A stretch of 64,000 nt of DNA from a virus: positions 5,347 through 69,346 of the IMG/VR virus record IMGVR_UViG_3300010430_000027. One strand, 5' to 3'. The position numbers and the translations under genes are program-made. Numbering within the stretch: position 1 is the first letter of the stretch; every line of letters begins with the position of its first letter. Positions 7,646-51,230 of this stretch are shown in pieces. The notes under the pieces are model-generated. The model saw only the letters and a program-made list of their open reading frames with translations, made no database searches and was not told the DNA's origin.

Positions 7646-9589
7646 ATGGAATACTTAGAATTACCTAGAATAGAAACTCCCTGGAGTTCAATAGGTTATT
7701 TAACATATAAGCGTACATACAGTCGTAAATTCGAGAATGAAGAAGAGGAGTTGTTAGCGCCTGAAGCGCCGACTGAAGAATTTGAAGATACCGTTCTAAG
7801 GGTCATAAATGCTTGTGATGAGCAATTTAATTGTAACTTTACGCGAGATGAAGAATATAGATTAGCTGGGTATTTCTTAGCGTTGAAAACATCTGTTGCA
7901 GGTAGATTCTGGTGGCAAGCCGGTACTGCAACGGTGGATAGATTAGGACTGGCTTCACTACAGAACTGTGCATTCGTCACAGTAGATTCACCTGTGAGAC
8001 CTTTTACTTGGTGTATGGATATGTTGGCACTGGGCTCCGGTGTTGGATATAACATACAAAATGAGCATATAGACAAGTTACCGAAGGTGAGACCTTGGTT
8101 CAAAGCACCGATACGCTTGGATGATGGTAGTGCGGATTTTATTGTACCAGACTCCAGAGAAGGCTGGGTCAAGCTGCTGGGTAAGACACTTAAAGCAGCG
8201 TTCTTGTCAGACCGACCAGAGCAAGGTACGTTCACGTATTCAACACAGATCATTCGAGGAAAGGGATCACCCATTAAGGGCTTTGGTGGCGTGGCTTCTG
8301 GCCCGGAAGATCTTGTGTGGGGCATAAATCAGATATCTTTGATACTGGAAGATAGAGGTGGCAAGAAGATTAAGCCAATACATGCGCTTGACATAATGAA
8401 CATTATTGGATATATAATTGTTGCTGGTAACGTTAGACGTTCAGCGCAGATAGCTATAGGAGATTGTGATGATGTCGAATTCTTATTGGCAAAAAGATGG
8501 GATATGGGTGGCATCCCCAAGTGGCGCTCAATGTCAAATAACAGTGTCGTCTGCAACGATCTCGCTGACTTACACCCATACTTCTGGGATGGGTATGACG
8601 GAAGAGGTGAGCCATATGGACTCATCAACCTTGAACTTTCACGTAGCTGTGGCAGATTGGGAGAAACTTGGTATGACGATCCAAATGTTGAAGGATATAA
8701 TCCATGCGCCGAGCAGAGTTTGGAACCTTACGAAACCTGTTGTTTAGCTGAAATATTCTTACCAAACATTGAATCTTTGGAAGAACTCATAGATGCAACT
8801 GAGCTGCTATATAGGATCAATAAACATGCTATGACACTCAATTCTCATTTAAAAGAGACTCAGGAAGTGGTTCATAACAACATGCGTATGGGAATAGGTG
8901 TCACAGGTTATTTACAGGCCAGTGACGAACAAAAGAATTGGTTGGATTATACGTACAGGTATCTCAGGAAGTTCGATAAGAAGTATTCTGCGTTACATGA
9001 TCTACCTGAATCTATAAAACTTACGACAGTGAAACCCAGTGGGACGCTATCATTACTACCAGGTGTAACTCCGGGATGCCATCCAGGCTATTCCCAGTAT
9101 ATGTATCGCAGGATAACCATAGCATCAGAGCATTCTTTAACACAGGTGTGTAGAGAGAAAGGTTATCCTGTTGAATTTAAAAAGAATTTAGACGGCACTG
9201 AAGATTATGGATCATGCGTTGTGACATTTCCTTACAGATACCCTGAGGGTACTGTGTTGGCGAAAGACATGACGGCATTGAAACAACTTGATACAGTGCG
9301 CGAATTGCAAACCAGGTGGTCGGATAACAGTGTAAGCTGCACCATATATTATAGAAAGGAGGAGATTCCAGAAATCAAACAATACTTGAGATTTAGATAT
9401 GCCACTTGTCATAAGAGTCTTTCATTCTTATTGCACAGTGAGCACGGCTTTGAACAAGCTCCTTATGAAGAGGTAACAAAGGAGAAATATGAAGAATTGG
9501 TGGCACAAGTTGAACCGATAACGGATATCGTGTCGGCTGAATTTGAGGCCATTGATGAATGCGCCGGAGGAATGTGTCCGGTGAAATGA
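7646..9589 (+). CDS. nrdJ: Class II (adenosylcobalamin-dependent) ribonucleotide reductase
   Basis: Motifs KRTYSR, NCAF, PDSREGW, AGNVRRSA, NPCAEQ, TTVKPSGT and C-terminal CAGGMCP. The start at ATG 7646 follows an AGGAG RBS. Confidence 0.93.
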   Translation: MEYLELPRIETPWSSIGYLTYKRTYSRKFENEEEELLAPEAPTEEFEDTVLRVINACDEQFNCNFTRDEEYRLAGYFLALKTSVAGRFWWQAGTATVDRLGLASLQNCAFVTVDSPVRPFTWCMDMLALGSGVGYNIQNEHIDKLPKVRPWFKAPIRLDDGSADFIVPDSREGWVKLLGKTLKAAFLSDRPEQGTFTYSTQIIRGKGSPIKGFGGVASGPEDLVWGINQISLILEDRGGKKIKPIHALDIMNIIGYIIVAGNVRRSAQIAIGDCDDVEFLLAKRWDMGGIPKWRSMSNNSVVCNDLADLHPYFWDGYDGRGEPYGLINLELSRSCGRLGETWYDDPNVEGYNPCAEQSLEPYETCCLAEIFLPNIESLEELIDATELLYRINKHAMTLNSHLKETQEVVHNNMRMGIGVTGYLQASDEQKNWLDYTYRYLRKFDKKYSALHDLPESIKLTTVKPSGTLSLLPGVTPGCHPGYSQYMYRRITIASEHSLTQVCREKGYPVEFKKNLDGTEDYGSCVVTFPYRYPEGTVLAKDMTALKQLDTVRELQTRWSDNSVSCTIYYRKEEIPEIKQYLRFRYATCHKSLSFLLHSEHGFEQAPYEEVTKEKYEELVAQVEPITDIVSAEFEAIDECAGGMCPVK

Positions 9590-9597
9590 GCACGTGC

Positions 9598-9665
9598 GCG
9601 CCCGATCCTGAAAGCTGATGGTTCCCTTGGGGGATAGGTTTAGTAGGGATGCGGGCGCATTTTAC
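9598..9665 (+). other. GC-rich stem-loop between nrdJ and the pentamer array (terminator or array leader)
   Basis: GCGCCCG (9598-9604) pairs with CGGGCGC (9652-9658), with inner ATCCT/AGGGAT; followed by ATTTT. Confidence 0.45.
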
Positions 9666-9693: not shown

Positions 9694-9986
9694 GACATGG
9701 CAGGCATGGCGCGATAAGGCACGGCAAGGCAAGGCTCAGTGAGGATGGCATGGTGAGGCAGGCTTGGACTGGCGGGTAGGGGCCAGGCGGGGCTCGTCGG
9801 GGCAAGGCAGGGCGCGGCAGGCAGGGTATGGTAAGCTGTGGCGGATTATGGCAAGTTGTGGCACGGCAGGCGAGGCGCGTCCAGGCCTATCGCGGAACGT
9901 TGGGCGAGGACAGGCATGGTGAGGCAGGCTTGGACAGGCATGGCAAGGCCCGACTGATCAAGGCACGGCAGGACATTTCAAGACAA
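9694..9986 (+). repeat. GGY-NN pentamer array 1 (candidate guide-RNA array)
   Basis: Parses as about 55-60 units, mostly GGC/GGT plus two variable bases (GGCAT GGCGC GATAA GGCAC GGCAA GGCAA GGCTC ...). A 4-nt GGCA punctuation occurs at 9699, 9757, 9816, 9865 and 9923. Confidence 0.9.
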
Positions 9987-10058
9987 GATACAACAACTTC
10001 ATATGTCATCAGAGTCGGGGCATATGTAGTTTTCTAATTACGACTCAGGAGAAGTACA

Positions 10059-10658
10059 ATGGCAACTATTACAATGAAACCTATTAATGCACGGGTAATT
10101 CATTTTCACATCATTGGGACCACTTCAATGATTCATCACAATTGGTCTCAGAAGTCAATAGCGCAAATGCGTGACAAGCACGCAGGCAAAAAGACAGTTT
10201 CTCGTGAGATCAGAAACCCAAAAGAAGAGTTTCAAAACGCATGTTATCTCACGGAAAACAATGAATACGGATTTCCTCTGATGGCTTTTAAAACTGCGTT
10301 GATAACCGCAGCTCATAGGGATATCGGTATTGAGAAGACCTTAGTCAGAAAGGCTATTTTTGTGAAATCTGATGATTCTGGCCTAATCACAAAGATGAAA
10401 TGCAACAAACCCATTATGAGAGAAGATACTGTTAGGGTAGGTCAGGGTAAAACTGATTTGAGGTATCGCCCTGAATACAAGAAATGGTCTGCGGAAATTT
10501 TCATGGAAATCGACGGGGACCTTCTCACCGCTCAAGATGTTATTAACTTGACAAATCGTGCGGGTTTCGGTGTAGGTATCGGCGAATGGCGTCCAGAAAA
10601 AGGAGGCGAAATGGGTCGTTTCAAAGTTGATGAAACAAAGAAAGTGGAAATACTCTAA
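10059..10658 (+). CDS. Stand-alone RAMP/Cas7-like RNA-binding protein
   Basis: RAMP-like first strand IHFHIIGTTSMIHH, YGFPLMAFKTAL (cf. RAMP P.IP..s.Kg.l) and C-terminal Gly-rich loop AGFGVGIGEWRPEKGGEMGRF. AGGAG RBS. Confidence 0.75.
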   Translation: MATITMKPINARVIHFHIIGTTSMIHHNWSQKSIAQMRDKHAGKKTVSREIRNPKEEFQNACYLTENNEYGFPLMAFKTALITAAHRDIGIEKTLVRKAIFVKSDDSGLITKMKCNKPIMREDTVRVGQGKTDLRYRPEYKKWSAEIFMEIDGDLLTAQDVINLTNRAGFGVGIGEWRPEKGGEMGRFKVDETKKVEIL

Positions 10659-11137
10659 TGAAAGCATATTGGAAAAAAGGGTTTCATGCTAAGGTGAAAC
10701 CTGAAATAGCCGCTGAGGAATTCGAAAGAATTCGTCAACTCTATGGCGGTGATTTGACCGCCCCTATTATACATAAGGAGGTCATAAAGAAAAGGAATCC
10801 TTTACATGGAACTTTGGAATGGGATAATGAAGTGGCTGGTTATGAGCACCGTTTAGATCAAATCAGAAACATGGTTAGATCCATTGTTGTGATTTATAAC
10901 AATGACGGTAGGGAATTGAAATCAAGACTGTTTGAAGTGGTACAAGCGGATACATCTGAAGATGAACGTAAATATAATGTTTATAATACATTAGAAGATA
11001 TCCTGGCTGATCCACGAAAAAGGGCAGAATTCCTTTCAAGAGCCAAAAGAGAAGCTGCAACATATCGCAAAAGATATTCAAGTCTAACTGAATTGTCAAA
11101 AGTTTTTGATGAAATTGACAATCTTTTAATTGAATAG
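10658..11137 (+). CDS. Conserved-looking partner protein of the RAMP-like gene, function unknown
   Basis: TAATG coupling to the RAMP-like gene; motif NPLHGTLEWDNEVAGYEHRLDQIRNMVRSI; lies inside the repeat-flanked cassette. Confidence 0.8.
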   Translation: MKAYWKKGFHAKVKPEIAAEEFERIRQLYGGDLTAPIIHKEVIKKRNPLHGTLEWDNEVAGYEHRLDQIRNMVRSIVVIYNNDGRELKSRLFEVVQADTSEDERKYNVYNTLEDILADPRKRAEFLSRAKREAATYRKRYSSLTELSKVFDEIDNLLIE

Positions 11138-11148
11138 CGTCTTGATGT

Positions 11149-11288
11149 GGCGACAAGGACGTCGTCTACAAGGCTTGGCGAGCCAGGCATGGTATGGTAC
11201 GTCCAGCCCGAGCTAGGCGCGGCAAGGCAGGCATGGCAGGCAAGGCAAGACGTGTAGGGGCCCGACGTGAAAGGGCAAGGCAAGGCAT
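11149..11288 (+). repeat. GGY-NN pentamer array 2 (candidate guide-RNA array)
   Basis: GGCTT GGCGA GCCA GGCAT GGTAT GGTAC GTCCA GCCCG AGCTA GGCGC GGCAA GGCA GGCAT GGCA GGCAA GGCAA GACGT GTAGG GGCCC GACGT GAAAG GGCAA GGCAA GGCAT. Confidence 0.85.
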
Positions 11289-11295
11289 ACTAACA

Positions 11296-15199: not shown

Positions 15200-15216
15200 A
15201 GGCGCGGGTTTGCAGT

Positions 15217-15235
15217 GACCCCGTTAAATTAACCC
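15217..15235 (+). promoter_or_regulatory. 19-bp conserved motif, copy 1 (candidate phage RNAP promoter)
   Basis: GACCCCGTTAAATTAACCC, identical at 23317 and 51128; all three copies are intergenic. Confidence 0.7.
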
Positions 15236-15340
15236 ATAAGGAATATAGTCACATATGTTGACACCAAGCTATTCTAGTAGGATATGCGAATATACCTAAT
15301 TGTGGGGGATAACCCACACATCTACTAGAGGAATCTATAA

Positions 15341-16654: not shown

Positions 16655-17022
16655 AGAAATACGACATACAAGAAATTACGTCTGCATTTATAAGAGCGCA
16701 AGATAAAGGTAGTGTAGCTCTGGTAAATGTCTTATTGGAACTGGAGATTGAGGAATGGTATCCAGCCGTGGATGAAATTGTGTGGAGCGAAGAGAGGAAT
16801 GCGTATGTATTGTATTCTATTACCAAAAATTCAAATGACGACGTTTCGCCTATATCTATAAGTAATACCCGTTTTGAACCAATGTTACATCTTCTGAGAA
16901 GGATAGCTGCCAATTTGGAAGCATTTCCAGATGTCGCTGCCAAGAAGTTTATTGAGACGCACTATAAGTCGATGGGGTTTCCTTTGAGATTGCACAATTT
17001 GGGAGAGAAATATGACACATAA
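16651..17022 (+). CDS. Hypothetical protein
   Basis: ATGA overlap with the MazG-like gene. Confidence 0.6.
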   Translation: MKKYDIQEITSAFIRAQDKGSVALVNVLLELEIEEWYPAVDEIVWSEERNAYVLYSITKNSNDDVSPISISNTRFEPMLHLLRRIAANLEAFPDVAAKKFIETHYKSMGFPLRLHNLGEKYDT

Positions 17023-17131
17023 TCGTTGGAAGTATGATAGTGTAAAACTTTTCAGCTGGACGGCAGTTATGATCAGCGGGGTGGTCTTTTGGGGGTTAGC
17101 TATATGGGGACTCCGTTGTGCATTCTCATGA
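17012..17131 (+). CDS. 39-aa membrane peptide (below the ORF-track cutoff)
   Basis: GGAG RBS; translates as MTHNRWKYDSVKLFSWTAVMISGVVFWGLAIWGLRCAFS*. Confidence 0.5.
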   Translation: MTHNRWKYDSVKLFSWTAVMISGVVFWGLAIWGLRCAFS

Positions 17132-17339
17132 TAAAATATACCTTCCTATATGTCCAGTGTGCAAGCTCTACCCTGTGGCGTCCAATAGGGAAGGTGGGGC
17201 TGTTTCCAGTACGTGTGGAGTGGAATGCAGTCAAATCAAAAATGCTTCTTCCACCGACAAAGACGCCAGAACCAAGTGGTTGAAGAAGAATGCCTGTAAT
17301 AAGTCATTCAATAAATTCCTATATGGGAAAGGAAGATGA
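17118..17339 (+). CDS. Small Cys-rich protein
   Basis: CPVC...CGVEC; stop overlaps the next ATG; start uncertain. Confidence 0.4.
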   Translation: MHSHDKIYLPICPVCKLYPVASNREGGAVSSTCGVECSQIKNASSTDKDARTKWLKKNACNKSFNKFLYGKGR

Positions 17340-17527
17340 CAATCTATCAAACTAATGTTTGGATTTGTGATGGTTGCGGTCGTATTGAAACCACAACAGA
17401 AAGAGTCTCAGCTTATAGCGACCCTGTAGTTGCCTTACCTGATCAAGAATGGGAGTGGGTAAAAACACTGGATATGCGCTACGAGGAATTTGTGTGTCCC
17501 AAATGCCAGGAGGGTTATTGTGAATAA
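17336..17527 (+). CDS. Small zinc-ribbon protein
   Basis: CDGCG...CPKC. Confidence 0.65.
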   Translation: MTIYQTNVWICDGCGRIETTTERVSAYSDPVVALPDQEWEWVKTLDMRYEEFVCPKCQEGYCE

Positions 17528-17843
17528 ACACGATGAATTGATAGCGCGGTTGGATTGGCGAGCCAATAAACTTGCTGGCCCCGGTTGGTTAATGCATAAC
17601 TGTGTCGCTGATTTGCGAGATGCACAGCAACTACTCCAACTCTACGGCGATGCGCTAGAAGCGATAGCAGCAGAGTCACAAATGAAAATACCTACTGGTA
17701 ATGGCTGGACATATACCTACTCCGAGATGGCAGCTAAAGCCCTAGCGGGCGAAACGATAGAGGGAGAAACCCTGGCTGACGCCCTAACTAAAGGTATTAA
17801 AGAGGGGTGGATAGAACCACCGACAACGGTAGAGGGAGAATGA
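17520..17843 (+). CDS. Hypothetical protein
   Basis: GGAGG RBS before GTG 17520. Confidence 0.6.
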   Translation: MNKHDELIARLDWRANKLAGPGWLMHNCVADLRDAQQLLQLYGDALEAIAAESQMKIPTGNGWTYTYSEMAAKALAGETIEGETLADALTKGIKEGWIEPPTTVEGE

Positions 17844-17844
17844 T

Positions 17845-18072
17845 ATGACTGTTAACGTAAATGGCGAGAGCCAGACACTAATAGAAGACCAGCAGAAGCG
17901 CATCGATGAGTTGGAAGCACAACAACGCACTAATGAAAGAAAGTTATTAGACGAAGGAACTGAAGTGGGATTACTCCAGGCACAGGTTAAGGAACGGGAC
18001 GAACGTATTAATCAGCTTGAAACTGCATTGGAAGGTAGTGTAGCTCTGGTAAATGTCTTACTGCACGATTAG
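17845..18072 (+). CDS. Hypothetical coiled-coil protein
   Basis: GGAG RBS; shares DQQKRI and LQAQVKE with downstream genes. Confidence 0.6.
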   Translation: MTVNVNGESQTLIEDQQKRIDELEAQQRTNERKLLDEGTEVGLLQAQVKERDERINQLETALEGSVALVNVLLHD

Positions 18073-18245
18073 TAGCCATAAAACAATTTCTGCAACGTGA
18101 GTTTGATAACGCCAAGGATATTGATGCGATTGATAAAGCCATCACCGCGCTACCCACAGTTGACCCACTACAGGCACAGGTTAAGGAACTGGAAAGGAAA
18201 GTCTTATGGTTGGAAAGCAACTGGGTTAACCCTACAGGAGAATGA
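18069..18245 (+). pseudogene. Start-less coiled-coil gene remnant
   Basis: Open frame LVAIKQFLQREFDN...LQAQVKELERKVLWLESNWVNPTGE* with no ATG/GTG/TTG at its 5' end after the upstream in-frame TAG. Confidence 0.4.
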
Positions 18246-18248
18246 ATT

Positions 18249-18623
18249 ATGAGTGACCTAACAGGATTATCACAAGCTGCGCTCTCAAAAATTATTGCAG
18301 ACCAGCAGAAGCGCATCGGGGAACAGCGCAAAGAATATGTAATCTTAGAACAGAAATACTTTGAGCTACAGGCACAGGTTGATGGTTATCGAAAAGACTA
18401 TGCATTGGTTGTTGAGGCCTGTGAGACGCAGCAAGCCCGTATCGAGGAACTGGAAGCTGATAAAGCAAACATATTAGCCAATACAGATAAATCAGCATTA
18501 AGGCTAGTTAACCTAAACAAAGAGCTACAGGCACAGGTTAAGGAACTGGAAGCTGATATTAAGTGGCTAACTTCTAATCGCCTGAAACTGGAAGCAGCCC
18601 TACAGGAGAATAATGATGAGTGA
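18249..18623 (+). CDS. Hypothetical coiled-coil protein
   Basis: CAGGAG RBS; repeated LQAQV and IEELEA. Confidence 0.65.
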   Translation: MSDLTGLSQAALSKIIADQQKRIGEQRKEYVILEQKYFELQAQVDGYRKDYALVVEACETQQARIEELEADKANILANTDKSALRLVNLNKELQAQVKELEADIKWLTSNRLKLEAALQENNDE

Positions 18624-18801
18624 TTTAACTGAAAAGCTAGAGTACTACGACTCAATTACTAAACAGGAAGCAGTCGATCGCATCGAGGAACTGGAAGCTG
18701 CGCTAAAAGGAATAGCCGCGAGAAGGCATTGTTTCAGTGATATAAACGGTTGCGGCGCAGCATCCACAGCCAGAGCAGCCCTACAGGAGAATGAATTATG
18801 A
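18613..18801 (+). CDS. Hypothetical protein
   Basis: CAGGAG RBS; paralogous C-terminus AALQEN. Confidence 0.6.
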   Translation: MMSDLTEKLEYYDSITKQEAVDRIEELEAALKGIAARRHCFSDINGCGAASTARAALQENEL

Positions 18802-18977
18802 GTGATAGAAGCCCGCGAGGTCGCAGAATGCCGGAAACAAGAGAGCAATTCGAGGAGATGGCTGATCTATGCGAGCAGGCGTTACTAAGGAAGGATACCG
18901 AAATAGCGTTACTCAAAGCCAGGGTTAACCGATTACAGCAGTGGAAGGATAAACACAATAGGCAGGTGACAATATGA
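18798..18977 (+). CDS. 59-aa hypothetical protein (below the ORF-track cutoff)
   Basis: CAGGAG RBS and ATGA overlap; MSDRSPRGRRMPETREQFEEMADLCEQALLRKDTEIALLKARVNRLQQWKDKHNRQVTI*. Confidence 0.55.
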   Translation: MSDRSPRGRRMPETREQFEEMADLCEQALLRKDTEIALLKARVNRLQQWKDKHNRQVTI

Positions 18978-23272: not shown

Positions 23273-23316
23273 CCCCTCAAAACCGCTCTCTTGTGGATAC
23301 CACACAAACGTTGATA

Positions 23317-23335
23317 GACCCCGTTAAATTAACCC
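23317..23335 (+). promoter_or_regulatory. 19-bp conserved motif, copy 2 (candidate phage RNAP promoter)
   Basis: GACCCCGTTAAATTAACCC at the start of the non-coding region before the terminase genes. Confidence 0.7.
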
Positions 23336-23943
23336 GAGTTTAGCTTGGCAAGAGTGTTAATGAGGATCTGCTTTAAAGTCGCTAAAGGAAAAATCTTAGC
23401 CCATGTGGGCACTCTACGTGTAGTAGTGCTCGACGCAAGTCGTGCCTGTCGGCATGAGACAACTCAATAATTGTAATTATTCTTATTTCAAAAATGCTGA
23501 ACAGTATTCAAAGGTTCACATTTAATGTACAATAATATATTACACCCAATTCGCTTCTTATACTGAACTATATTATACAATATAGATAACTTATAAGAAG
23601 CCATAATATTGACTCTCCAATTCGGGTTGTGGGGTTGATGGCCTCGGGCTTGAGGCCCCGGCCACAACAAACAGACCACAATGTCTCTCTGAGAAACATT
23701 AAGGGCAATTCAGTATTAAAACGAGTGAGACACAATTAAGGGTTCTTATCAAATGGGCATTTAACCCATTGTAGTGCTGAGAGTCCATCGCTATCGTTAA
23801 TTCGTTGATGTATTTTCAATATGAACTTTGAGCGGTGCCCTAGGGTTCACTAAAACTTTTCATTTTCTGTGTTTAAAAGATCGCTTCTTAATGCAATTTT
23901 TGTATAACCAGAACATACCTTTGATATAATAATTAGGAGTGAT

Positions 23944-26872: not shown

Positions 26873-28875
26873 TGGTCACTGTAGCGCTATTACCTGCCAT
26901 AGAGACAGATTCCGCATTTACGATCGACATACCCACTCTAGGTATCGCCATAGAAACTGAAATTGCTCCCAGCATGACCATAGGCCTGGGCAGTGACAGG
27001 ATAGCTGGACTGTATGGCATAGAATTGATACATGGTTTGGAAGATGTTGATAATGAACTCTGGTTGAGGATGTCCGGTGTGAGCTCATCCTTCGCTTTAC
27101 AGAATGCTGTATTGGGTTCGAACACAATAACGGCCGAATTGGGCACTCTGGGTACTGCCAAAGACGGCAAGTTGGCGCTGTCTTCTGTTAGTGTTACTGC
27201 TACACCAGGAGACTTAAATGAAGCCCTGGGTACTGCCGGAGTATTGACCACTAGAGTATTGGGGCCGTCTCCAAAAGGCTCTCCTTTGACCAATGAAGAA
27301 GTGGACACAAACTTCCTCTCTTTGGAAGCTAATAAATTGAACAAAATCATCGGACACAATAAGCTTCTTTATACCGATGATACTGGAGCTGTTAAAGAGC
27401 TGATTCATGGGCCTGACGGTTACATATTGCACTCTAATGGTCCGAATCAAGTGCCTTCTTGGAAACCTAATCCAGGTGAAGGCTCAGGTATACCTCTCGT
27501 TCTTGAGATTGAAGGTGTGCCGTTCAGCACCAATGCCAGTAAGCTTAACTTTGAAGGTACCGGAGTAGTGGTCACTGAACCCACTCCCGATGAATTCACC
27601 ATAACAATTGCGGGGTCCGGTGTGGCAGAATCCGATTCAGAGTACTTTCCTGGTTACATGTATACATATATTAACACTACCACCTTTATGGTGGAAGGCA
27701 TAGACGTAACTCCACTATTCTATTATAATCGTCGTGTCATATTCATAAGCGAGGGTCTGACCCGTTATGGACACATTGCTGCCATAGATTACGATCTGAC
27801 TAACGCTGGTAGTACTACATTCACAATGGCCATGGAAAACGGTGCGGATCTGTTCACTGAAGAAGCCACTGAGTTCGGTCTCACCACAGATGCAAGAAGC
27901 TGGGCACCTTTAACTACCGTGCCTTTTGACGGTAATGACATGACTTGCATGGCTAGTGGTAAGATCGGTGCAACCAACTTTTGGGTTGTTTGCGGAGAGA
28001 ATGGAAGGCTTGCTTATTCGCCCAATCAAGGTGGTAGCTGGGTGGAAGTCAATACAGGTGAAATTGGTCGTTTCACCGATATTGCATTTGACCACTGGAA
28101 TAATGTATTCTGCGCAGTAGGTACAGATGGTTTAATCCTATTCAGCACTACAGGGACTTCATGGGCTGCTCCAGCGGTTGTGCCCACTGTTGGCATCGGT
28201 TCTCAAAACGATTACTTTTCTGTATGCTTTCAAGAGTCGCAGGGCGCGATTATGATTTTAAAGAACTACTCCGACACTTGGGCGAAGATGTGGTTTACCT
28301 TTGATCACGGTGCCAGTTGGGTGGAAGCTACCGCTGGAGGCGGGCAGATTATAAACCCTGGGAGCGCTGGCACCAAAATTATGCGCTCCTCTCTTCCAAG
28401 TGCTATCTTCTTTTTAACATCAACAAATAAGACTATCCAAGGTACTTCCTTAACTGATACTTCCTATTCAAGCTATAATACTTGTCCTACAGGCGGTTCC
28501 ATACAAGGTTTTGTGTCGTCCTTTGAAGCCACCATCTATAACGTGACTGTTCAAGATGACGGAACGATAACTCAATTTGAAAATACTCTTGAGTCGGCGA
28601 GTGATACGACAACATTTAGCAGCCCTCTGAGGTCTGTAGCATACTCAGGAGATCATGACAGGTATCTATGTGTGGGAGACAACGCGCAAATAGGGTATTT
28701 GGATGCCGCTGATTGGGCTGATGGACCCGCCGGTGATGATCAATGGACGTCTGTTCCAAATGGTTTCAATCCCACTTCGAATATAAATTGGGTGGTATAT
28801 GATGGTGTGGCAAATATGTTCTTGGCTTGCAGTAGCGCAGGTCAGATTTGCGTTTCAAACAGCGGTGTAATTTAA
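26872..28875 (+). CDS. Tail fibre / receptor-binding protein with beta-propeller (BNR-like) repeats
   Basis: KGSPLTNEEVDTNF fibre motif; repeated blades such as S.NQGGSW, STTGTSW and TFDHGASW. Confidence 0.7.
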   Translation: MVTVALLPAIETDSAFTIDIPTLGIAIETEIAPSMTIGLGSDRIAGLYGIELIHGLEDVDNELWLRMSGVSSSFALQNAVLGSNTITAELGTLGTAKDGKLALSSVSVTATPGDLNEALGTAGVLTTRVLGPSPKGSPLTNEEVDTNFLSLEANKLNKIIGHNKLLYTDDTGAVKELIHGPDGYILHSNGPNQVPSWKPNPGEGSGIPLVLEIEGVPFSTNASKLNFEGTGVVVTEPTPDEFTITIAGSGVAESDSEYFPGYMYTYINTTTFMVEGIDVTPLFYYNRRVIFISEGLTRYGHIAAIDYDLTNAGSTTFTMAMENGADLFTEEATEFGLTTDARSWAPLTTVPFDGNDMTCMASGKIGATNFWVVCGENGRLAYSPNQGGSWVEVNTGEIGRFTDIAFDHWNNVFCAVGTDGLILFSTTGTSWAAPAVVPTVGIGSQNDYFSVCFQESQGAIMILKNYSDTWAKMWFTFDHGASWVEATAGGGQIINPGSAGTKIMRSSLPSAIFFLTSTNKTIQGTSLTDTSYSSYNTCPTGGSIQGFVSSFEATIYNVTVQDDGTITQFENTLESASDTTTFSSPLRSVAYSGDHDRYLCVGDNAQIGYLDAADWADGPAGDDQWTSVPNGFNPTSNINWVVYDGVANMFLACSSAGQICVSNSGVI

Positions 28876-41879: not shown

Positions 41880-44318
41880 ATGTCTAAGATCTCCAGAATA
41901 TTTGTCGGCAATGTTCCACCACCTACTCCTTCGACGTATGCCCAGACGATTAATTTGTGGATGGCCGTAGATGAAGTAGATACAGCATCTTTTTTAGCTC
42001 CCTCTGTCTATCTATTGCAGGCACTCGAAACCGATACGGTGTTTACCTTAACGCCGATCACACCCGTTACGGGGACGTTGACACAAGCCGTAGAGACTGA
42101 TACGGCGTTCTCACTACCGCTCAATGCTTCTTTCTTACAAGCCGTTGAGACCGACACTGCGCTCGTACTATATGAACCTGAAACGTTGTTGCAGGCACTC
42201 GAAACCGATACGGCGTTCTCGTTACCTCTCAATGCTTCTTTCTTGCAAGCCGTTGAGACTGACACTGCATTTGTAATTGAAGGTTCCCTGGATATATCCG
42301 GTACCATCGGCATTGCGATAGACACTGAAAGTGGCTTAACACTGTATGAGCCGGAGACCATAGGCCAAGCACTCGAAACGGACACTGCGAATGTTCTATA
42401 CGAGCCTGAGACCATCGGTCAATCACTGGAAACCGATACAGTATTCGCATTAACACCTATAGCCGTTGTTGTGGGTACATTGGTCCAGGCGCTTGAAACA
42501 GATACCGCCAACATTATCTACACCCCAGAGACCATAGCTCAGGCGTTAGAAACTGATACTGCCATATCGTTGGCTTTGAATGCTTCAATACTGTTTGCAC
42601 CAGAAACCGATACAGCGTTACCCATACTCGGTTCATTGGACATTTCCGGTACTCTTGGGATAGCAATAGACACTGAAAGTGGTTTGGTTCTATATGAGCC
42701 GAATACTATAGGCCAAGTATTAGAAACAGATACAGTTGGGATAGTATACGCTCCAGAGACAATCTTACAAGCCCTGGAAACGGATACGGCTTTCATAGTA
42801 ACTCCTGTGGTTTCTGTGATAGGTACGTTGGTACAAGCCGTTGAGACGGATACAGCCAACTTATTATATTCTCCAGAGACCATAGCCCAAGCTCTTGAGA
42901 CTGACACCGCGTTCTCACTGCCGCTCAATGCTTCTATCTTGTATGCGTTGGAGACTGATACTGCATTACCGGTAACAGGTTCACTGGATATTTCTGGTAC
43001 CCTTGGTATTGCGATAGACACTGAAAGTGGCCTGCTCATTTTCAGTCCAGAAGAAATAGTGCAAGCGCTTGAGACAGATACCGGCTTTGTGTTGACGCCT
43101 TTGGCTGAAGTTACAGGGACACTTGTTCAAGCAATAGAGACGGATACAGCCAATTCACTGTATGAGCCTGAGACAATAGTACAGGCTTCGGAAACTGATA
43201 CTGCGACCATTTTAGAACCCATTTCAGACGTTGTGGGCATAGTAGTACAAGCCCTAGAAACGGACACTTCTGGTGAGATATCTGCTCCTGAGACAATTGG
43301 GCAGGCCTTGGAGACAGACATAGCGCTGCCAATACTTGGCTCATTGGATATTTCTGGAACACTCGGTGTAGCAATTGACAACGAGAGTGGTCTACCAATT
43401 ACGGGTTCGGTTGCCGTAGTGGGTACTACCGTTCAAGCAACAGAAACGGACACAGGTATTGAGCTTGTTCCTAAAACGGCTCTTTCGGTCGTGGTTGGAC
43501 AAGCGCTTGAGACCGATTCAGCTCTAACAGTATATGCACCGGAAACCATTCTTCAGGTAGTCGAGACAGATACAGCAGGTTTGTTGTACGGTTCAGAGAC
43601 ACTGGGTCAAGCCACTGAGACCGATCTCTCAGGAATAATGGTTCCAAGGATAGCCATAAGCGCTATTCTTCCTCAAGCCATTGAGACTGACACTGCTCAA
43701 GCCTTTACCGGAATCATTCTCGTAAAAGGTTTGCTGAGCACCGCTTCTGAAAACGATACTTCTCAAATATTGGTTCCGGTCACTGACGTTACAGGTTCCT
43801 TGGACTTAGCTGAAGAGACAGACAGCGCTTTGAACGTGACAGGCTCGTTGGCCATTGCGGGTCTGCTCCAGATTGCATCCGAGTCGGACACCGTGCAGCC
43901 GCTCTCAGGCGTTTTCGCGGTCTCCGTGGGTCTGGGCACCGAAACGGAAACGGCCCAGACGTTCACACCTGTGACTGCGGCAACGAGCACTATCCTTACT
44001 GCCGTTGAGAACGATACGGCCATAAACCTATCTTCACCCTCACAAAACATATCGGCTACAGTGGGTGCCATAACGGGTGGTCAAAGTCTAACGAATCTTA
44101 CTTACTGTGTATTTGATTCTTATGATCTATCGACCGCAAATATTGTTAAACAGGGTATAGGCGAAACTACAGATGGTAGTGGCAATCTTGTGGTAGACTT
44201 AAATGGAACTGGGTTATCACAAAGTGCACCGGTTACTATTGTTATAACAAATTATACAACAACACCGATCGGTAGCAGTCGCGCTGCCGTTTGTTTCACA
44301 ACCGTCTTGGTGGCTTAA
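41880..44318 (+). CDS. Highly repetitive acidic protein (QA[LV]ETDTA repeats), probable fibre/stalk
   Basis: Dozens of [QI]A.ETD[TS] repeats at ~16-22 aa spacing; very few basic residues. Confidence 0.85.
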   Translation: MSKISRIFVGNVPPPTPSTYAQTINLWMAVDEVDTASFLAPSVYLLQALETDTVFTLTPITPVTGTLTQAVETDTAFSLPLNASFLQAVETDTALVLYEPETLLQALETDTAFSLPLNASFLQAVETDTAFVIEGSLDISGTIGIAIDTESGLTLYEPETIGQALETDTANVLYEPETIGQSLETDTVFALTPIAVVVGTLVQALETDTANIIYTPETIAQALETDTAISLALNASILFAPETDTALPILGSLDISGTLGIAIDTESGLVLYEPNTIGQVLETDTVGIVYAPETILQALETDTAFIVTPVVSVIGTLVQAVETDTANLLYSPETIAQALETDTAFSLPLNASILYALETDTALPVTGSLDISGTLGIAIDTESGLLIFSPEEIVQALETDTGFVLTPLAEVTGTLVQAIETDTANSLYEPETIVQASETDTATILEPISDVVGIVVQALETDTSGEISAPETIGQALETDIALPILGSLDISGTLGVAIDNESGLPITGSVAVVGTTVQATETDTGIELVPKTALSVVVGQALETDSALTVYAPETILQVVETDTAGLLYGSETLGQATETDLSGIMVPRIAISAILPQAIETDTAQAFTGIILVKGLLSTASENDTSQILVPVTDVTGSLDLAEETDSALNVTGSLAIAGLLQIASESDTVQPLSGVFAVSVGLGTETETAQTFTPVTAATSTILTAVENDTAINLSSPSQNISATVGAITGGQSLTNLTYCVFDSYDLSTANIVKQGIGETTDGSGNLVVDLNGTGLSQSAPVTIVITNYTTTPIGSSRAAVCFTTVLVA

Positions 44319-44938: not shown

Positions 44939-46504
44939 ATGGGTGTCGCAAACGCTGCGGACAAGACTAAGATAGTCGCGGATCCGAATGCAGAATACGA
45001 GTCTATGAAAGACATATGGCAAAGAAGCCGCGCTGTCTGTAGTGGTGAGCGATACGTGAAGAACTTAGATTACTATATAGATGTCCACTACTATACAAAT
45101 CTATTAATCCCTTTTTCGCCATCCATGTCAGATGCTCAGTATGCATTCTATAAAGCTGAGGCAGAGTTGCCAGGGATTGTGTCGCAATTCGCAAGGATGC
45201 TTGTCGGTGGTTTATTAAGGAAAGAACCTTTATTGGAATTACCTGATAGTGTTCCAGAAGGTACAATGGACTGGATAATGAATAATTTCACTCAGGACAA
45301 CTCCACCATAACTTCCTTTTTGGATGTGGGGTTGTGGGAAGAGATGCAGACCAGTCGTGCTTGGGTGTACGTTGACCATCCTGTATTGACAGATGAAGAA
45401 GCTGGTACGATAAGTCAAGAAGAGATGTTTGAAAGGGCTCCTTATCCTGTTCTTTGGAAGGCAGAGAATATTATTAATTGGAAGACTAAGACAGACGTAA
45501 AGGGTAATTCCATTCTTGAGCAGTTGATTGTGAAAGGGACAGTGGCAAGATATCCTGAAGATAATGAATTCCATCCAAACTACATAAGTACTGTATTTGT
45601 ACATGAGCTGGTTGGGGGTCTTTATCAGATCAGAGTATTTGAGAAAGTTGTGGAAGAGAGTAAAGTTCCTATGGTCAGTGGAACAAAGTTCGAAGACAAT
45701 TCGAAGACTATGGATAAGTACGTACTCACTGAAACTAAGACCAATATATTTGCCAATAATGAGCGTCTTACTATAATACCTGCATGGCCTCTAAACGGTA
45801 GTATCTCCATAACAGAGCCGATACTTTCTCCGATTATCGATAAAGAGGTTGCCTTATATAATAAGTTGAGTAGACGTAATCACCTGTTGTATGGTGCTTC
45901 TACATATACTCCCATAATACAATCAGATATGTCTCCTGAAGATTTCAAGAAAATCGTGGATGCTGGTCTTGGGACATGGTTGCATCTGGGTGTAGATGAC
46001 AAGGCCACTGTGTTGGAAACTCCCACAGCAGCTTTGAAAGACATGGAAACGGCCATAGCCAGTGCCATTGAAGAGATGGCTAAGTTGGGTATACGCATGT
46101 TGTCTCCTGAGAGTGCTCAATCTGGTGTTGCTTTGGAAATACGTAATGCGGCGCAAAATGCACAATTGGGCTCTTTGAATAATAAGATTAGTATGATAAT
46201 GTCTAAGGTCATTGCATTCATGATCGAATGGCGCACAGGTGAACAGATTAAAGATTCAGAAGTGAAGTTCATGTTATCAGCAGATTTCAACCCAATACCC
46301 TTGGGTGCTGATTGGCTAAGATTGGCCACTGAGTGGTATGAGACAGGGCTGATCCCACGTTCTATTTGGTTGCAAATTCTCAAGCAGAATGATATGATCG
46401 CTCCTGATTACGATGACGAAGAAGGTGTCAAGGAAATTGATGAAGACGAACTCATAAACAAGGAAGAAGAGGAAGATCCTGAGTTCTTTGAAAATGTCAA
46501 ATGA
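44939..46504 (+). CDS. Portal protein (DUF4055-like)
   Basis: 521 aa immediately before the MuF gene; Y..Y..AE..GIV, WVYVDHP, PYPVLWKAENIINW, SGVALEIR, acidic C-terminus. Confidence 0.85.
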   Translation: MGVANAADKTKIVADPNAEYESMKDIWQRSRAVCSGERYVKNLDYYIDVHYYTNLLIPFSPSMSDAQYAFYKAEAELPGIVSQFARMLVGGLLRKEPLLELPDSVPEGTMDWIMNNFTQDNSTITSFLDVGLWEEMQTSRAWVYVDHPVLTDEEAGTISQEEMFERAPYPVLWKAENIINWKTKTDVKGNSILEQLIVKGTVARYPEDNEFHPNYISTVFVHELVGGLYQIRVFEKVVEESKVPMVSGTKFEDNSKTMDKYVLTETKTNIFANNERLTIIPAWPLNGSISITEPILSPIIDKEVALYNKLSRRNHLLYGASTYTPIIQSDMSPEDFKKIVDAGLGTWLHLGVDDKATVLETPTAALKDMETAIASAIEEMAKLGIRMLSPESAQSGVALEIRNAAQNAQLGSLNNKISMIMSKVIAFMIEWRTGEQIKDSEVKFMLSADFNPIPLGADWLRLATEWYETGLIPRSIWLQILKQNDMIAPDYDDEEGVKEIDEDELINKEEEEDPEFFENVK

Positions 46505-49500
46505 TAAACAATGCTAATACAACTATTTACGATGGAAGGGTAGATAGGGCAGCATTACTGAGATTGTATGAGAAGAACACTATAGGGAAGGTTGAAGTGG
46601 TGTTAAATGGGCATGTTGTTAGATTGGACAAGATTATTAAGACTTCCAAATTGACATCTAGAAATTTTAAGACTTTCCAATTAACAGTGGACAGGGAACT
46701 GAAGAGAACTTTTAAAGAAGCATTCAATGTTTCCAAAAGATCTTTATTGGATCTTGCATCAGACCAAGTATCGTTTACGTTCCAAAACCTAGAAGCATCG
46801 GTCAGTAATGTGTGGCGTACTCGTAAACCACAGAGGCGTGTAGCTGAAGAACTCGTATTGAAAAATCCTTTGCATCAGAATAAGACTCTAGCATTGGGTT
46901 GGATAGACGTAAGTAATAATGAGAAAAAGCGAATAGTGGGTGTGATCCGGAAAGGTCTGGCCGATGGCGATACTCCAGAAGTCATTGCCAGGAATGTTAG
47001 GCGTGGCAGTGTTCACAAAATCACAAGAAATCAATCTAAAGCTTTAGTTACCACATCAATTACTAGCGTGTATGCTCAGGCTGACCACGCTGTTTATGAG
47101 GCCAATGCTAAGATGCTACGTGGGTGGCAATATGTGGCTGTACTGGATTCAAGAACTACTCAAATATGTACACATAGGGATGGTAAAATATATCCCGTAT
47201 CTGACACATCGCATCTACCTCCAGCGCATTGGCGCTGTAGATCTACAACGACTCCCATTGTAAAAAATTGGAATGATTTGGGTAAGTTGGAAGGTGTTAA
47301 TCAGGTACGTAAGAGAAATTTAAAGAAGTTGACTCCTGCCCAAATAGCATTCTATGATGGTCAAACGCCACTTAAGGAGTCTTACAATGCATGGTTACTG
47401 AGGCAACCTAGCGATGTTCAATTACGACATCTAGGAGATCACCAAAAGGTAGAACTCTTTAACAATGGTAAATTAGAGGTCAGTAAGTTCACTGCTCCAA
47501 GTGGTGCCGAATTAGGAATACGGCAGTTACGTCAATTGACAGACTCTGACTATTCTACCCCCAATGACACCAAGAAATTCGCATTGGCCAAACAAAAATT
47601 GGATGCAATGCAGTTAGGAGCCAGTGCTCCAGAGGATTTCCTAGATAGTATTAAGCTCACAAATACCTTGAAAGAATACTATATCTTACAATCTCGTGAG
47701 TTGGGCGGCACGTTGTCCTTAACAAACTATCGTGGTAACTTAATTGGTAGCAAGACCAGGACTAAGAATTTGGTTCTCAATAGATTGCCCAGAGATGATC
47801 AACTGCTTTTCAATCCCATAACAGGTAGATATGAAGACAGTAGATTGTTTCAACCTTCTCCGGCCATCTTACAAAACAATCTAAGACTGGTGAATGAGAG
47901 CACAGTATTGAAAGCAGCTGATAAGACATATATTAATAAGTTCATAAAGAGTCTAGAAGACCATATGAGTGTTAATGAAAGAGCTGTTGTATCAGACAAT
48001 CTCAGAATCCTTTTCACAAGATATAGAAAGAATCCATCTGCATGGGCCAATTTTAAGGCCGTATCACAAGCACAAGTTAAATTTGATGTAATGAACGTTT
48101 CAGATGCAATTGAAACACAACTGAGAAAAGATGCTGACTTTTTAAAGAAGTTAAAATTAGACAATTATATTGATCCGATTCTGGGTCCTGTACAATTTAA
48201 AGATCTATCTGACAAGTTTGTAGCTAATATTCTCGCTAGAAATAAGTGGGAAGATAGGGTGGCTCCTAAGCTTGCTAGACAGCTCAGAGATGTATTTGAT
48301 GTACGCATCCCAATTAAGATAAAAAGACGCGTTCCAGATGATAAGTTACAGCAATTCTACCTAAGGTTCGCCCATAGATTGAGTCTAGCAGACAGTCCCG
48401 ATTTGGATAATTTTGCTGTGGCTCTGGGCAGAGATCTCTATAACATGGCCAATATAAACGGTACCAGAACTCAATGGTTGAATCTGGGAAAGCGACTGGT
48501 GGAGTCAAATAACAAATTCTATAGTCTAGAGACTTTTGGTGTTCAAAAACGTAGGATGAAGAGCAAATTGAGTGGTCAATACTTTGGACCATACTATGAC
48601 ACTTTCTCGCATAATATAAGAATTACCGATCCCAGGATTCAGCGGTACGCCAAGTTGAATCGTAGCATAGATGTTGGCTTGCGCGTGGGCGTTATAGACC
48701 CCAAGAACCAATTAATCTTTAGGGAAGGCGCTAAGACGTATTATGTTAGAAACAACATAGGATTGTTGACTGACACAAGGATACCGATTACCTCCACTTC
48801 CAGTTTCACAAATTTTCCTGAAAAGTTCTTAGACAAAGATATGATAGATTCCCTGAATTGGGCATCCAAAAGTAAATTCAAAGTAGATAGAGATTATCAT
48901 GATTTTGTTGTAAAGCTGTTGAACTTCAGTGATGACCGAGGTAAAGCCGCGTTCTATGACAACTTGAACACGTACAAACAATACATCATTTCGAGAGGAG
49001 ATTCTTATGAACGTTTCAAAGCTATGGAGTGGTTTTCGAAAAATGACATTGCCTTCAGCAATCACGCGTTTATTGACAGCCGTGCTAGGATTTATGAAAG
49101 AGGATTTATTGGGCCTCAAGCCGGAGAAACCTTCAGACCGTTCTTAAATACTGCCTATGAACGTAACTTCAGTCCAAGGGACTTTCAAAACTTTCAAGAT
49201 CAGATAGGTTCTTTTCTTGGTGGTTTGGATGACTTCTTCGAAGGTAGATTCAACTCATTGAGTGTTCTTGGTAGACAGCGTTTGGCAGACAAATGGCGTC
49301 CTGAGATTGTAAAGATAGGGCACCAGATGCTCAGAGGTAAACCCAGAGATATTAGAGCCATTCTGAGTTCTGAATTTGTATCTAAAATAGAAGGCGAAGA
49401 ATTGGGTAAATTTTTCAGGCTGGCTATGGAGTCAGCGAAGATAGATGATTTCTTGGGTGGTGTTTATACTCGTAAGTCTGTGGCCAACCTAAGTAAATAT

Positions 49501-51123
49501 AGAACTGCATTAGCGCTTGAACAAGATGCTTCATCTTCCGGTGCACAGATCATTGCATTGACTACTAAGAATAAGCAATTGGCTGAACTCAGTAACGTCA
49601 TTCCAACCAACCAAAAGAAGAGACTCTATGACGAGATTGCCGGTCTGACTTTCAATGATCCCAGATTTAAGAGACTCAACATGCGTCTAGGATTGAATGA
49701 GAGAGATCTCAGAAAGGCCGCTAAAGCTCAGAACATGGTAACATTCTATGGTGCTGGAGAAAGAACCGGTGTACTGAATGTTGAAAAGAAGTTGGCCAAG
49801 ATACTCGAAGAAGACGGTGAGACCCTTGTGGTCAGGGCGTCTCAGAGAGATGAGGTATTGAGTGAGATCTCGGCGAGAGTGGCACGATTTGAAAGATTTG
49901 ACCCTGAGACAGCGAGAGAGTTGACAGTACTGAGAGCTAATATAAGAGATCTTTTCAACAAAGGTCTCAATCCCGGTCAGGATATGATGGAAGAATTGTT
50001 CTTTTTGACGCCAACCACAAAAGAGTTCTTGGAGAAGATGTCCAAAAGTTATAATAAAGTTGTAACACCGAACGACTTTAAAGAGATAGCTTCTATAATG
50101 AGTGAGCATCTTGCTATACAAACGCCTATACTAAAGTCTTTCACGAAATTCATGGGGAGATTGGCTTCAGACTTTCTAGATAATGCCAAGCCATCTAAAG
50201 CTGATTTCGATTGGACGTCTGTATTCAAGCAGACATTAGTAGGTACACGCAAGGATGGTTACAAGTTGCCTCCCAGAGTGGGCGAAATCCTGGGAGTCAG
50301 CACAAAGAAGTCTGTGTCTGAAAGCTTTCTGAATCGTTTTGGATTTTGGAAACCCAATGGCACTTTGGATGAGATACTGTATGGTCCCAGGGCTCCCAAC
50401 AATAGACGTACAGGTGCCAAGTATTTCAAGACAAGTGTATTCAAGGTAAAGAAGCTATTTGAATTGGAAATATTTAAAGCCAACGTATTACCGAAGAGAT
50501 GGACAAGCGCCCCTTGGGTTAACTTTGATGGCAAGATACTTGAACAAAATTTCACATCCAGAATTGAACAGAGATTGTTTTATAGAGACAGAGATGGAAA
50601 TCCTATAAACAACATTATTCAAATTGATAATAAGACTGAAGCCACTTGGTGGGAACAGTTTGTCAATGATTCTGGCAATATAAATGATATTGCAGATACA
50701 GCTAAGGCTAAGACTTCATTTGCCGTAAATGGCACTCACTCTAATGATGCTGTATTGGTAAAAAGATTCCATCTTTGGGGAAGAGATAATAAAGTAAACA
50801 CTGCAACTGTTCATGATGCGTTTTTCACTAATGCAGCTGAGATGTTACAAGCCAAAGATGCACTGAGAGGTATATATGCGAAGGCTGTAGACTCGAATGT
50901 AATAAAACAAACATTGGATGAGATGCTCTCTAGAGGATTTCCCAGACATTTATATGATCAGTATTTAAGAGAAGCCATTGAGACTGGACTTATCCCAGTT
51001 CCAGGTAAATCGAGAATAGACGGAAGACTTCTGACTGATACAGACATACTAGGTCGCGAAGATATTTTAAGAAACATTGAAGAAGTATTTGAAGACGATT
51101 TAGCTTGGTATGGTATCGGGTAG
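46501..51123 (+). CDS. MuF (SPP1 gp7-like) head protein fused to a T7-type single-subunit RNA polymerase
   Basis: MuF motif WQYVAVLDSRTTQIC..RDG...PPAHWRCRST. RNAP motifs DSRARIY...PQ, motif A QDASSSGAQ, motif B RKAAKAQNMVTFYG, HSNDA and motif C VHDAF. Confidence 0.9.
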   Translation: MINNANTTIYDGRVDRAALLRLYEKNTIGKVEVVLNGHVVRLDKIIKTSKLTSRNFKTFQLTVDRELKRTFKEAFNVSKRSLLDLASDQVSFTFQNLEASVSNVWRTRKPQRRVAEELVLKNPLHQNKTLALGWIDVSNNEKKRIVGVIRKGLADGDTPEVIARNVRRGSVHKITRNQSKALVTTSITSVYAQADHAVYEANAKMLRGWQYVAVLDSRTTQICTHRDGKIYPVSDTSHLPPAHWRCRSTTTPIVKNWNDLGKLEGVNQVRKRNLKKLTPAQIAFYDGQTPLKESYNAWLLRQPSDVQLRHLGDHQKVELFNNGKLEVSKFTAPSGAELGIRQLRQLTDSDYSTPNDTKKFALAKQKLDAMQLGASAPEDFLDSIKLTNTLKEYYILQSRELGGTLSLTNYRGNLIGSKTRTKNLVLNRLPRDDQLLFNPITGRYEDSRLFQPSPAILQNNLRLVNESTVLKAADKTYINKFIKSLEDHMSVNERAVVSDNLRILFTRYRKNPSAWANFKAVSQAQVKFDVMNVSDAIETQLRKDADFLKKLKLDNYIDPILGPVQFKDLSDKFVANILARNKWEDRVAPKLARQLRDVFDVRIPIKIKRRVPDDKLQQFYLRFAHRLSLADSPDLDNFAVALGRDLYNMANINGTRTQWLNLGKRLVESNNKFYSLETFGVQKRRMKSKLSGQYFGPYYDTFSHNIRITDPRIQRYAKLNRSIDVGLRVGVIDPKNQLIFREGAKTYYVRNNIGLLTDTRIPITSTSSFTNFPEKFLDKDMIDSLNWASKSKFKVDRDYHDFVVKLLNFSDDRGKAAFYDNLNTYKQYIISRGDSYERFKAMEWFSKNDIAFSNHAFIDSRARIYERGFIGPQAGETFRPFLNTAYERNFSPRDFQNFQDQIGSFLGGLDDFFEGRFNSLSVLGRQRLADKWRPEIVKIGHQMLRGKPRDIRAILSSEFVSKIEGEELGKFFRLAMESAKIDDFLGGVYTRKSVANLSKYRTALALEQDASSSGAQIIALTTKNKQLAELSNVIPTNQKKRLYDEIAGLTFNDPRFKRLNMRLGLNERDLRKAAKAQNMVTFYGAGERTGVLNVEKKLAKILEEDGETLVVRASQRDEVLSEISARVARFERFDPETARELTVLRANIRDLFNKGLNPGQDMMEELFFLTPTTKEFLEKMSKSYNKVVTPNDFKEIASIMSEHLAIQTPILKSFTKFMGRLASDFLDNAKPSKADFDWTSVFKQTLVGTRKDGYKLPPRVGEILGVSTKKSVSESFLNRFGFWKPNGTLDEILYGPRAPNNRRTGAKYFKTSVFKVKKLFELEIFKANVLPKRWTSAPWVNFDGKILEQNFTSRIEQRLFYRDRDGNPINNIIQIDNKTEATWWEQFVNDSGNINDIADTAKAKTSFAVNGTHSNDAVLVKRFHLWGRDNKVNTATVHDAFFTNAAEMLQAKDALRGIYAKAVDSNVIKQTLDEMLSRGFPRHLYDQYLREAIETGLIPVPGKSRIDGRLLTDTDILGREDILRNIEEVFEDDLAWYGIG

Positions 51124-51127
51124 TTAT

Positions 51128-51146
51128 GACCCCGTTAAATTAACCC
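51128..51146 (+). promoter_or_regulatory. 19-bp conserved motif, copy 3 (candidate phage RNAP promoter)
   Basis: GACCCCGTTAAATTAACCC between the RNAP stop and the scaffold gene. Confidence 0.7.
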
Positions 51147-51230
51147 TTGAGCTATGGTTTTATAGCTTACATTTTTTAATTTGTAATATTGTATATTACG
51201 TCATTAAGTTGTACTTGAGGATAAATAGTT

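Follow-up and report, generated by a model that had tools for sequence, protein, structure and literature searches.

A predicted VIPR cassette with staggered guide arrays in an uncultured marine sediment phage

The window analysed here is a stretch of 64,000 nucleotides, bases 5,347-69,346 of a viral record of 69,346 bases with 43% GC (IMGVR_UViG_3300010430_000027). It carries a cassette of two genes bracketed by tracts of GGY/NN pentamers, and we are nearly certain that this cassette belongs to VIPR. VIPR (Viral Interference Programmable Repeat) is described in the text of the 2026 preprints as a small CRISPR-related, RNA-guided DNA silencer (10.64898/2026.04.26.720920, 10.64898/2026.04.26.720927, 10.64898/2026.10.15.759431, 10.64898/2026.10.21.760802). 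Very probably the cassette is a VIPR with staggered arrays, in which guide-directed gapped pairing would block the transcription of rivals and the partner protein Vap would strengthen the repression. The locus adds to the known VIPR family and is not a new kind of system.

The cassette and its two proteins

The open reading frames of the window are those of a tailed phage. Among the 60 ORFs compared with PHROGs are polymerase, primase-helicase, ribonucleotide reductase, ligase, terminase, portal and capsid genes. Of the deposited capsids, those of EBPR siphovirus 1 (54%) and DSS3_VP1 (39%) come nearest. All six listed runs which contain the region are marine sediment metagenomes. Elsewhere in the window a 25-nt motif (family D11) has three intergenic copies (15216-15240, 23316-23340 and 51127-51151) and is possibly a phage promoter or operator. 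Several near-identical repeats of 22-38 nt lie among short ORFs at 16706-18805, which suggests a recombining small-gene cluster. An 812-aa ORF without PHROGs family (41880-44318) has many internal repeats at 54-, 120- and 174-base spacing, and a 1540-aa protein (46501-51123) matches head-morphogenesis families with its first 350 residues.

The first-pass annotation had placed a two-gene operon between nrdJ and a tRNA, and the two ORFs, the reductase and the tRNA-Tyr are all confirmed in place. The class II ribonucleotide reductase gene (nrdJ) ends at 9589, upstream of the cassette, and the two ORFs overlap by one base. The features outside the arrays are as follows.

9598..9658, + strand: long hairpin after nrdJ (folding z -2.36; 3 of 200 shuffles fold equally well)
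10059..10658, + strand: vipr, a 199-aa single-RRM RAMP with thumb and C-terminal G-loop
10658..11137, + strand: vap, 159 aa, phrog_15946; helical N-terminal part, beta hairpin and long C-terminal helix
11296..11388, + strand: tRNA-Tyr(GTA), starting 7 bases past the last array unit

The hairpin after nrdJ was not called by the terminator scan; we regard it as a probable terminator which would separate the cassette from the upstream operon. A search of the region with Rfam gave the tRNA and one chance match only, and no ribozyme. A sister phage (G001, 77.5 kb) with about 65-71% nucleotide identity in long conserved blocks carries the cassette at the corresponding position, with other NN dinucleotides in its arrays. 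A stretch of 45 bases ahead of vipr (10013-10058) is strongly conserved in this phage and can form a hairpin beside the ribosome-binding site. Its tRNA-Tyr is located elsewhere, and in none of 48 related loci does a tRNA directly follow the array. The tRNA-Tyr thus appears, from this comparison of loci, to be a neighbour and no conserved part of the cassette. A tRNA-based processing of the last guide was rejected because the adjacency of tRNA and array is not conserved.

The only sequence match of the 199-aa protein in the PDB is the Vipr of Escherichia phage SUSP1 (36PP, E 1.5e-6). Pfam has no family for this or the 159-aa protein, and in PHROGs the 199-aa protein matches the unnamed phrog_4652. 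Scanning viral sequences with the single Vipr sequence found no relative; the alignment-based scan did. Of 708 candidates, 664 are Vipr homologues. The four bacterial assemblies with a homologue (39-54% identity) are MAG contigs of Planctomycetota and Chloroflexota. The AlphaFold model, built on 119 sequences, has a pLDDT of 88 and matches Csm3, type VII Cas7 and Cmr subunits (best Foldseek E 3.1e-6, TM 0.54; best structural match Z 10.2, rmsd 4.1 over 155 aligned residues) in fold libraries which listed no Vipr structure. The RAMP/Cas7-like fold proposed from the sequence alone is thereby supported by the model (E 3e-6, Z 10) as well as by the match to 36PP. With the RAMPs of Class 1 CRISPR systems (Csm3, Cmr, type VII Cas7, Csf2) Vipr has the RRM fold, the thumb and the G-loop in common, but the identity is only 7-18%, there is no CRISPR array and no cas neighbour among the 60 ORFs scanned, and the guide is non-contiguous. 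The absence of cas genes and CRISPR repeats noted before agrees with the PHROGs scan of these 60 window ORFs, and out of 30 repeat families the 20 largest include no CRISPR-like one.

In SUSP1 Vipr the residues H17, R138, D177, W178 and R179 read the GGY, according to the text of the structural preprint (10.64898/2026.04.26.720927). By alignment they correspond to H27, R137, E176, W177 and R178 of the 199-aa protein, which are kept in 119, 119, 117, 107 and 119 of 119 homologues, respectively. The alignment is gapped at the DNA clamp and pyrimidine pocket of SUSP1 (K33, R39, E71, M72, K82, G87, K88); in this gapped alignment K33 falls on H41, R39 on V47 and K82 on H86, and the remaining four lie in gaps. 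Near these positions the 199-aa protein has the invariant or near-invariant basic residues K40, K45, R49, K78 and K87. The VIPR-type identity, which the first-pass annotation had put forward, stands on the 36PP match, the conserved GGY-reading residues and the flanking GGY arrays.

A homologue of the partner protein is found at 39 of the 48 related viral vipr loci. Its model is of good quality (pLDDT 90), and the fold matches are not significant (best Foldseek E 0.1 with none at E 0.001, best Z 6.1); many winged-helix proteins are among these best, non-significant matches. No sequence alignment is obtained with Vap1 of SUSP1. The Vaps of VIPR types II, VI and VII are predicted DNA-binding proteins (10.64898/2026.04.26.720920), and DNA binding by the window Vap, which would agree with this, may serve as a lead.

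Staggered arrays and their boundaries

The upstream tract (9694-9975) has 66% GC and contains 40 GGY. Twenty pairs of GGY are spaced at lag 5, while shuffled sequences have 2.0 on average and 8 at most. The downstream tract (11145-11290) contains 17 GGY with nine lag-5 pairs (shuffle mean 0.75, maximum 5). The proposed 5-nt periodicity is therefore real in both tracts, as 0 of 2000 shuffles reach either lag-5 count; the lag-10 count of the downstream tract is weaker and is reached by 65 of 2000 shuffles. Over the whole genome of 69,346 bases, all 60-base windows with at least five in-phase GGY lie within the two tracts, which extends to the genome the earlier remark that no comparable tract occurs elsewhere. 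On the minus strand the number of in-phase GGY per 60 bases never exceeds four, and there is one stray run of three units at 27614. Contigs from public DNA runs span the upstream tract once and the downstream tract twice with no difference inside (four of six runs, one of them maybe the source sample). Since these contigs span the tracts without internal difference, the tracts are no assembly artefact. Lower depth at the arrays in one DNA run was considered as a sign of a second allele and rejected, the coverage being too low.

The tracts had been read as plain arrays. We find, however, that one-base slips interrupt the register, mostly at the sequence GGCA/GG (the slash marks the junction), namely at five places upstream and two downstream, with three slips at other places. 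Because of these slips each tract holds several guides, and the tracts are staggered multi-guide arrays. In total there are about seven guides of 8-11 units and 44-59 nt, with no spacer and no structured tail.

9699..9971, + strand: upstream staggered vrRNA array with five predicted guides U1-U5, from periodicity and phase slips
9699/9703, 9757/9761, 9816/9820, 9865/9869 and 9923/9927, + strand: upstream GGCA/GG boundaries
9703..9760, + strand: guide U1, 58 nt, 11 units, one of them a 4-nt unit near 9743 (placement ambiguous), then a boundary
9761..9819, + strand: guide U2, 11 regular units
9820..9868, + strand: guide U3, 9 units
9869..9926, + strand: guide U4, 58 nt, 11 units, one of them short near 9899
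9927..9971, + strand: guide U5, 9 units, 3' end without boundary mark
11147..11170, + strand: small hairpin with AAGGAC loop, preceding the downstream array, also present there in the sister phage
11172..11288, + strand: downstream staggered array, beginning with two units and a degenerate boundary
11186-11229, + strand: guide D1, 8 units
11230-11238, + strand: 9-nt stub between D1 and D3
11239-11288, + strand: guide D3, 10 units

The segments thus measure 58, 59, 49 and 58 nt upstream, followed by an open end of nine units, and downstream 44 nt, the 9-nt stub and an open end of ten units. Many units have degenerate scaffolds, and two units are short. A 27-nt repeat (family D7, 96% identical) is found at the U1/U2 junction (9747-9773) and at the end of U4 (9913-9939) and covers two boundaries; part of it recurs in the downstream array of the sister phage. 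It may trace a duplication or recombination during guide renewal. The folding of the small hairpin before the downstream array is not significant against shuffles (z -1.45). A hairpin with an AAGGA(C/T) loop occurs once in the window and three times in the sister phage (L005:2142, 3591, 3807), before arrays, and was not found in the other related loci searched. The motif presumably resembles the CsrA/RsmA binding consensus.

Arrays and homologues occur together: GGY arrays were found at 42 of the 48 related viral vipr loci. Of the six loci without an array, three end close to the gene and the other three are flanked in full. The latter (L035, L039 and L040) have vipr-vap and no GGY array by the criterion used, and may use a different repeat unit; in L035 a tRNA-Met lies just after vap. 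Another locus (L011:3113-5590) has three very long staggered arrays with about 290 linked units. Over 53 loci 283 of 328 slips are at GGCA/GGY, and none is present in the SUSP1 arrays. The segments between boundaries have a length of 4 mod 5 in 214 of 241 distinct cases (mode 54 nt) and of 3 mod 5 in 15. In these loci, too, degenerate scaffolds and short units are frequent. The NN frequencies of 175 homologous guides track codon positions 1-2 (r 0.72) and not positions 2-3 (-0.12) or 3-1 (-0.19); neither of two strand tests made guide by guide reached significance (p 0.10 and 0.053).

Staggered vrRNA arrays, in which successive guides overlap by one base, are described in the text and the legend of fig. 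S18 of the discovery preprint and stand outside the experimentally confirmed VIPR layouts (10.64898/2026.04.26.720920). The text of this preprint, figures and data aside, names no boundary motif, short internal unit or target for them, and in its main text 'Gordonia', 'Mycobacter', 'GGCA' and 'Walker' do not occur. It is also the only paper found with 'staggered' and 'vrRNA' in a literature search outside subscription journals. The window shares with staggered VIPR the genes vipr and vap, the GGY/NN units, the one-base overlap of guides and the location in a phage. VIPR guides have about 9-16 GGY/NN units each, the window guides 8-11. Type II VIPR of SUSP1 has a homologous Vipr (22% identity) with conserved GGY-reading residues and, like the window, has a two-gene operon flanked by arrays on either side and no nuclease. 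Its guides, however, do not touch one another, carry a structured 3' tail each and show no register slips, whereas the window guides abut and are tail-less.

The targeting code and the search for targets

The Gordonia phages Pipp and Ecliptus and the Mycobacterium phage Quico carry unannotated VIPR loci whose Viprs are 33-40% identical to the window protein over the full length. They have the Vap family and the GGCA/GG boundaries in common with the window, but they are actinobacterial phages with one array each, where the window has two. In Pipp, whose Vipr is 40% identical, the vrRNA array (L001:2617-2886; MN234179.1 33093-33362) is annotated as hypothetical gene 43.

We scanned viral contigs with nine of the ten units of one Pipp guide, using a one-base skip and withholding the tenth unit. 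There were eleven hits, four of them in contigs of 66-68% GC which carry one gene family; the withheld unit was matched in all four of these, which include Gordonia phage Frokostdame, and in none of the other seven. This first guide matches Gordonia phages Frokostdame and JuJu at 20 of 20 positions with the wobble base skipped, the site lying antisense in a small gene which follows an antirepressor. Pipp's own copy of the target, which directly follows vap, has diverged; it scores 12/20, and the best site anywhere in Pipp 13/20. The second guide contains one 4-nt unit. If two bases of this short unit are taken as scaffold and the other two as NN, a reading chosen after seven gap sizes had been tried, the guide matches the HTH gene 41 of Frokostdame at 19 of 20 positions, again with the wobble base skipped. 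The two matches in Frokostdame are in genes 48 and 41. Shuffled guides reached at most 17/20 in 500, and skips other than one base at most 15/20. In the three Gordonia genomes no match was obtained for two of the four Pipp guides or for any guide of Ecliptus and Quico, and comparing 149 homologous guides all-against-all on fetched DNA gave a zero-mismatch match for Pipp only.

On sequence matches, a one-base-skip code leaving out the wobble base is demonstrated for a relative with the same layout. The gapped NN code proposed before thus holds for the Pipp guides (20/20 and 19/20), with a skip of one base, while for the window guides no target is established. Because a Pipp guide matches across a one-base slip, such a slip by itself cannot act as boundary signal. 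The sequence GGCA/GG is probably this signal; the boundary unit of Pipp is unmatched by the target.

These matches also bear on the idea that the tracts serve as binding sites on DNA, or are simply of low complexity, instead of being guide RNAs. The region is indeed present in no listed RNA run, and the promoter scan at the locus gave 6 sites against 3.6 expected, none of them convincing. Such tracts would, however, have to be strand-fixed beside 42 of 48 homologues with a fixed boundary and variable NN, and to match sister phages in codon phase as the Pipp guides do. Moreover, an RNA pull-down is reported for the homologous protein of SUSP1 (10.64898/2026.04.26.720920). We find this idea hardly credible and continue with the reading of the tracts as guides.

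In the window the guides U2, U3, U5 and D3 were scanned in public collections, and U1, U4 and D1 against the fetched loci. With a one-base skip the NN series of U2 reads (F/L)-L-G-G-(Q/H)-G-S-G-(K/N)-(S/R)-A, which we recognised post hoc as a Walker A motif. Such a reading arises in 42 of 2,000,000 random 11-unit guides and in 0 of 198 homologous guides. An exact match of U2 was found neither in viral contigs (10 units) nor in metagenomes and genomes (11 units). With nine units there were 14 metagenome matches, three of them in-frame Walker A sites in long ORFs. The best match in a phage (20/22) is in a terminase large subunit gene. The top score of 21/22 (L072) is out of the wobble register in a non-phage-like gene, presumably a sigma-54 activator, and in a collection of this size chance alone therefore produces scores of about 21/22. 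Among 120 relatives of the terminase the Walker A could be parsed in 111; its usual form is FLAGQGSGK(T/S)H, and 10 of the 11 codon classes of U2 are reached by the query terminase only. A second terminase match (L081) was rejected as it is the same contig as the first (L068). In 80 loci (870 kb) of the terminase-bearing phage family no other guide converged above controls, and the Walker A of the phage's own helicase scores 16/22, within controls. We consider a P-loop ATPase gene, for example a rival's terminase or helicase, the likely target class of U2, as judged from its codon reading.

The other guides gave less. The eight viral matches of U3 fall into two gene families, have the skip on the first codon position and were judged to be chance; D3 had one match whose tenth unit fails, at chance level, as was the single viral match of U5. 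For U1 no target was found in the fetched loci. In neither the phage's own genome nor that of the sister did any window guide score above shuffled controls, and for all seven guide blocks the best own-genome scores are within these controls, which gives no sign of self-targeting.

The main targets could instead be host genes or host repeats, in a takeover or decoy role, and not rival phages. Many cellular ATPases have a Walker A motif, two of the three in-frame U2 sites among the 14 metagenome matches are not in terminases, and solo vrRNAs against host REP elements are described in the text of a preprint (10.64898/2026.10.15.759431). But U2 has no exact match in 185,579 species genomes, which may not include the host, both Pipp targets are phage genes, and the published natural VIPR targets are mostly mobile elements (10.64898/2026.04.26.720920). 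We therefore think host targets very unlikely and prefer targets in competing phages.

It is also conceivable that the cassette is decaying or outdated, with intact genes and guides which match no current rival. The degenerate scaffolds, the two short units, the 9-nt stub and the degenerate boundary would fit this, as would the failure to find a target for the window guides. Yet both reading frames are intact, with the conserved residues retained, degenerate scaffolds and short units are also frequent in the relatives, and one Pipp guide reaches 19/20 despite its short unit. The rivals of an uncultured sediment phage may moreover be unsampled. Decay is in our view unlikely, and we favour a working system.

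Proposed mode of action and significance

For the systems of SUSP1 and P. fulva the text of the preprints describes a filament with one subunit per pentamer which buries the GGY and presents the NN. VIPR forms a gapped R-loop triplex and silences without cutting, and both Vipr and Vap1 are needed against a satellite (10.64898/2026.04.26.720920, 10.64898/2026.04.26.720927, 10.64898/2026.10.15.759431).

We suggest that the window cassette works in the following steps. The arrays would be transcribed and then divided at GGCA/GG into guides of 8-11 pentamers. Vipr would polymerise on each guide with one subunit per pentamer and, as the conserved residues suggest, bury the GGY and present the NN. 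The NN series could then pair with double-stranded DNA at two bases in three, skipping the wobble base of the codon, as the sequence matches of the relative indicate. Binding would keep genes of phages or satellites that compete for the host from being transcribed, and these genes might include one for a P-loop ATPase (a terminase or helicase, for instance). Vap, by analogy, could be a DNA-binding helper which strengthens the repression. The system thus probably silences competing phages.

More tentatively, and we would rather doubt than assert it, staggered VIPR could be a mechanistically distinct branch. Its tail-less guides would be punctuated only by GGCA/GG, recognised by Vipr or Vap to end or cut the filament, and other internal one-base slips would be read through. 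Recombination at boundary repeats would renew the guides, whose targets would be conserved motifs (here Walker A) as well as the sister-phage versions of genes of which the phage's own copy has diverged.

The window offers a compact example, with a 199-aa protein and guides of 44-59 nt, of a VIPR layout which was untested in the discovery preprint. The sequence test on Pipp gives a rule for the segmentation of such arrays, demonstrates tolerance of a short internal unit and names pairs of cultured phages on Gordonia terrae in which the targeting of kin can be tested directly. The staggered layout is a good handle on how guides are cut and how new guides are written.
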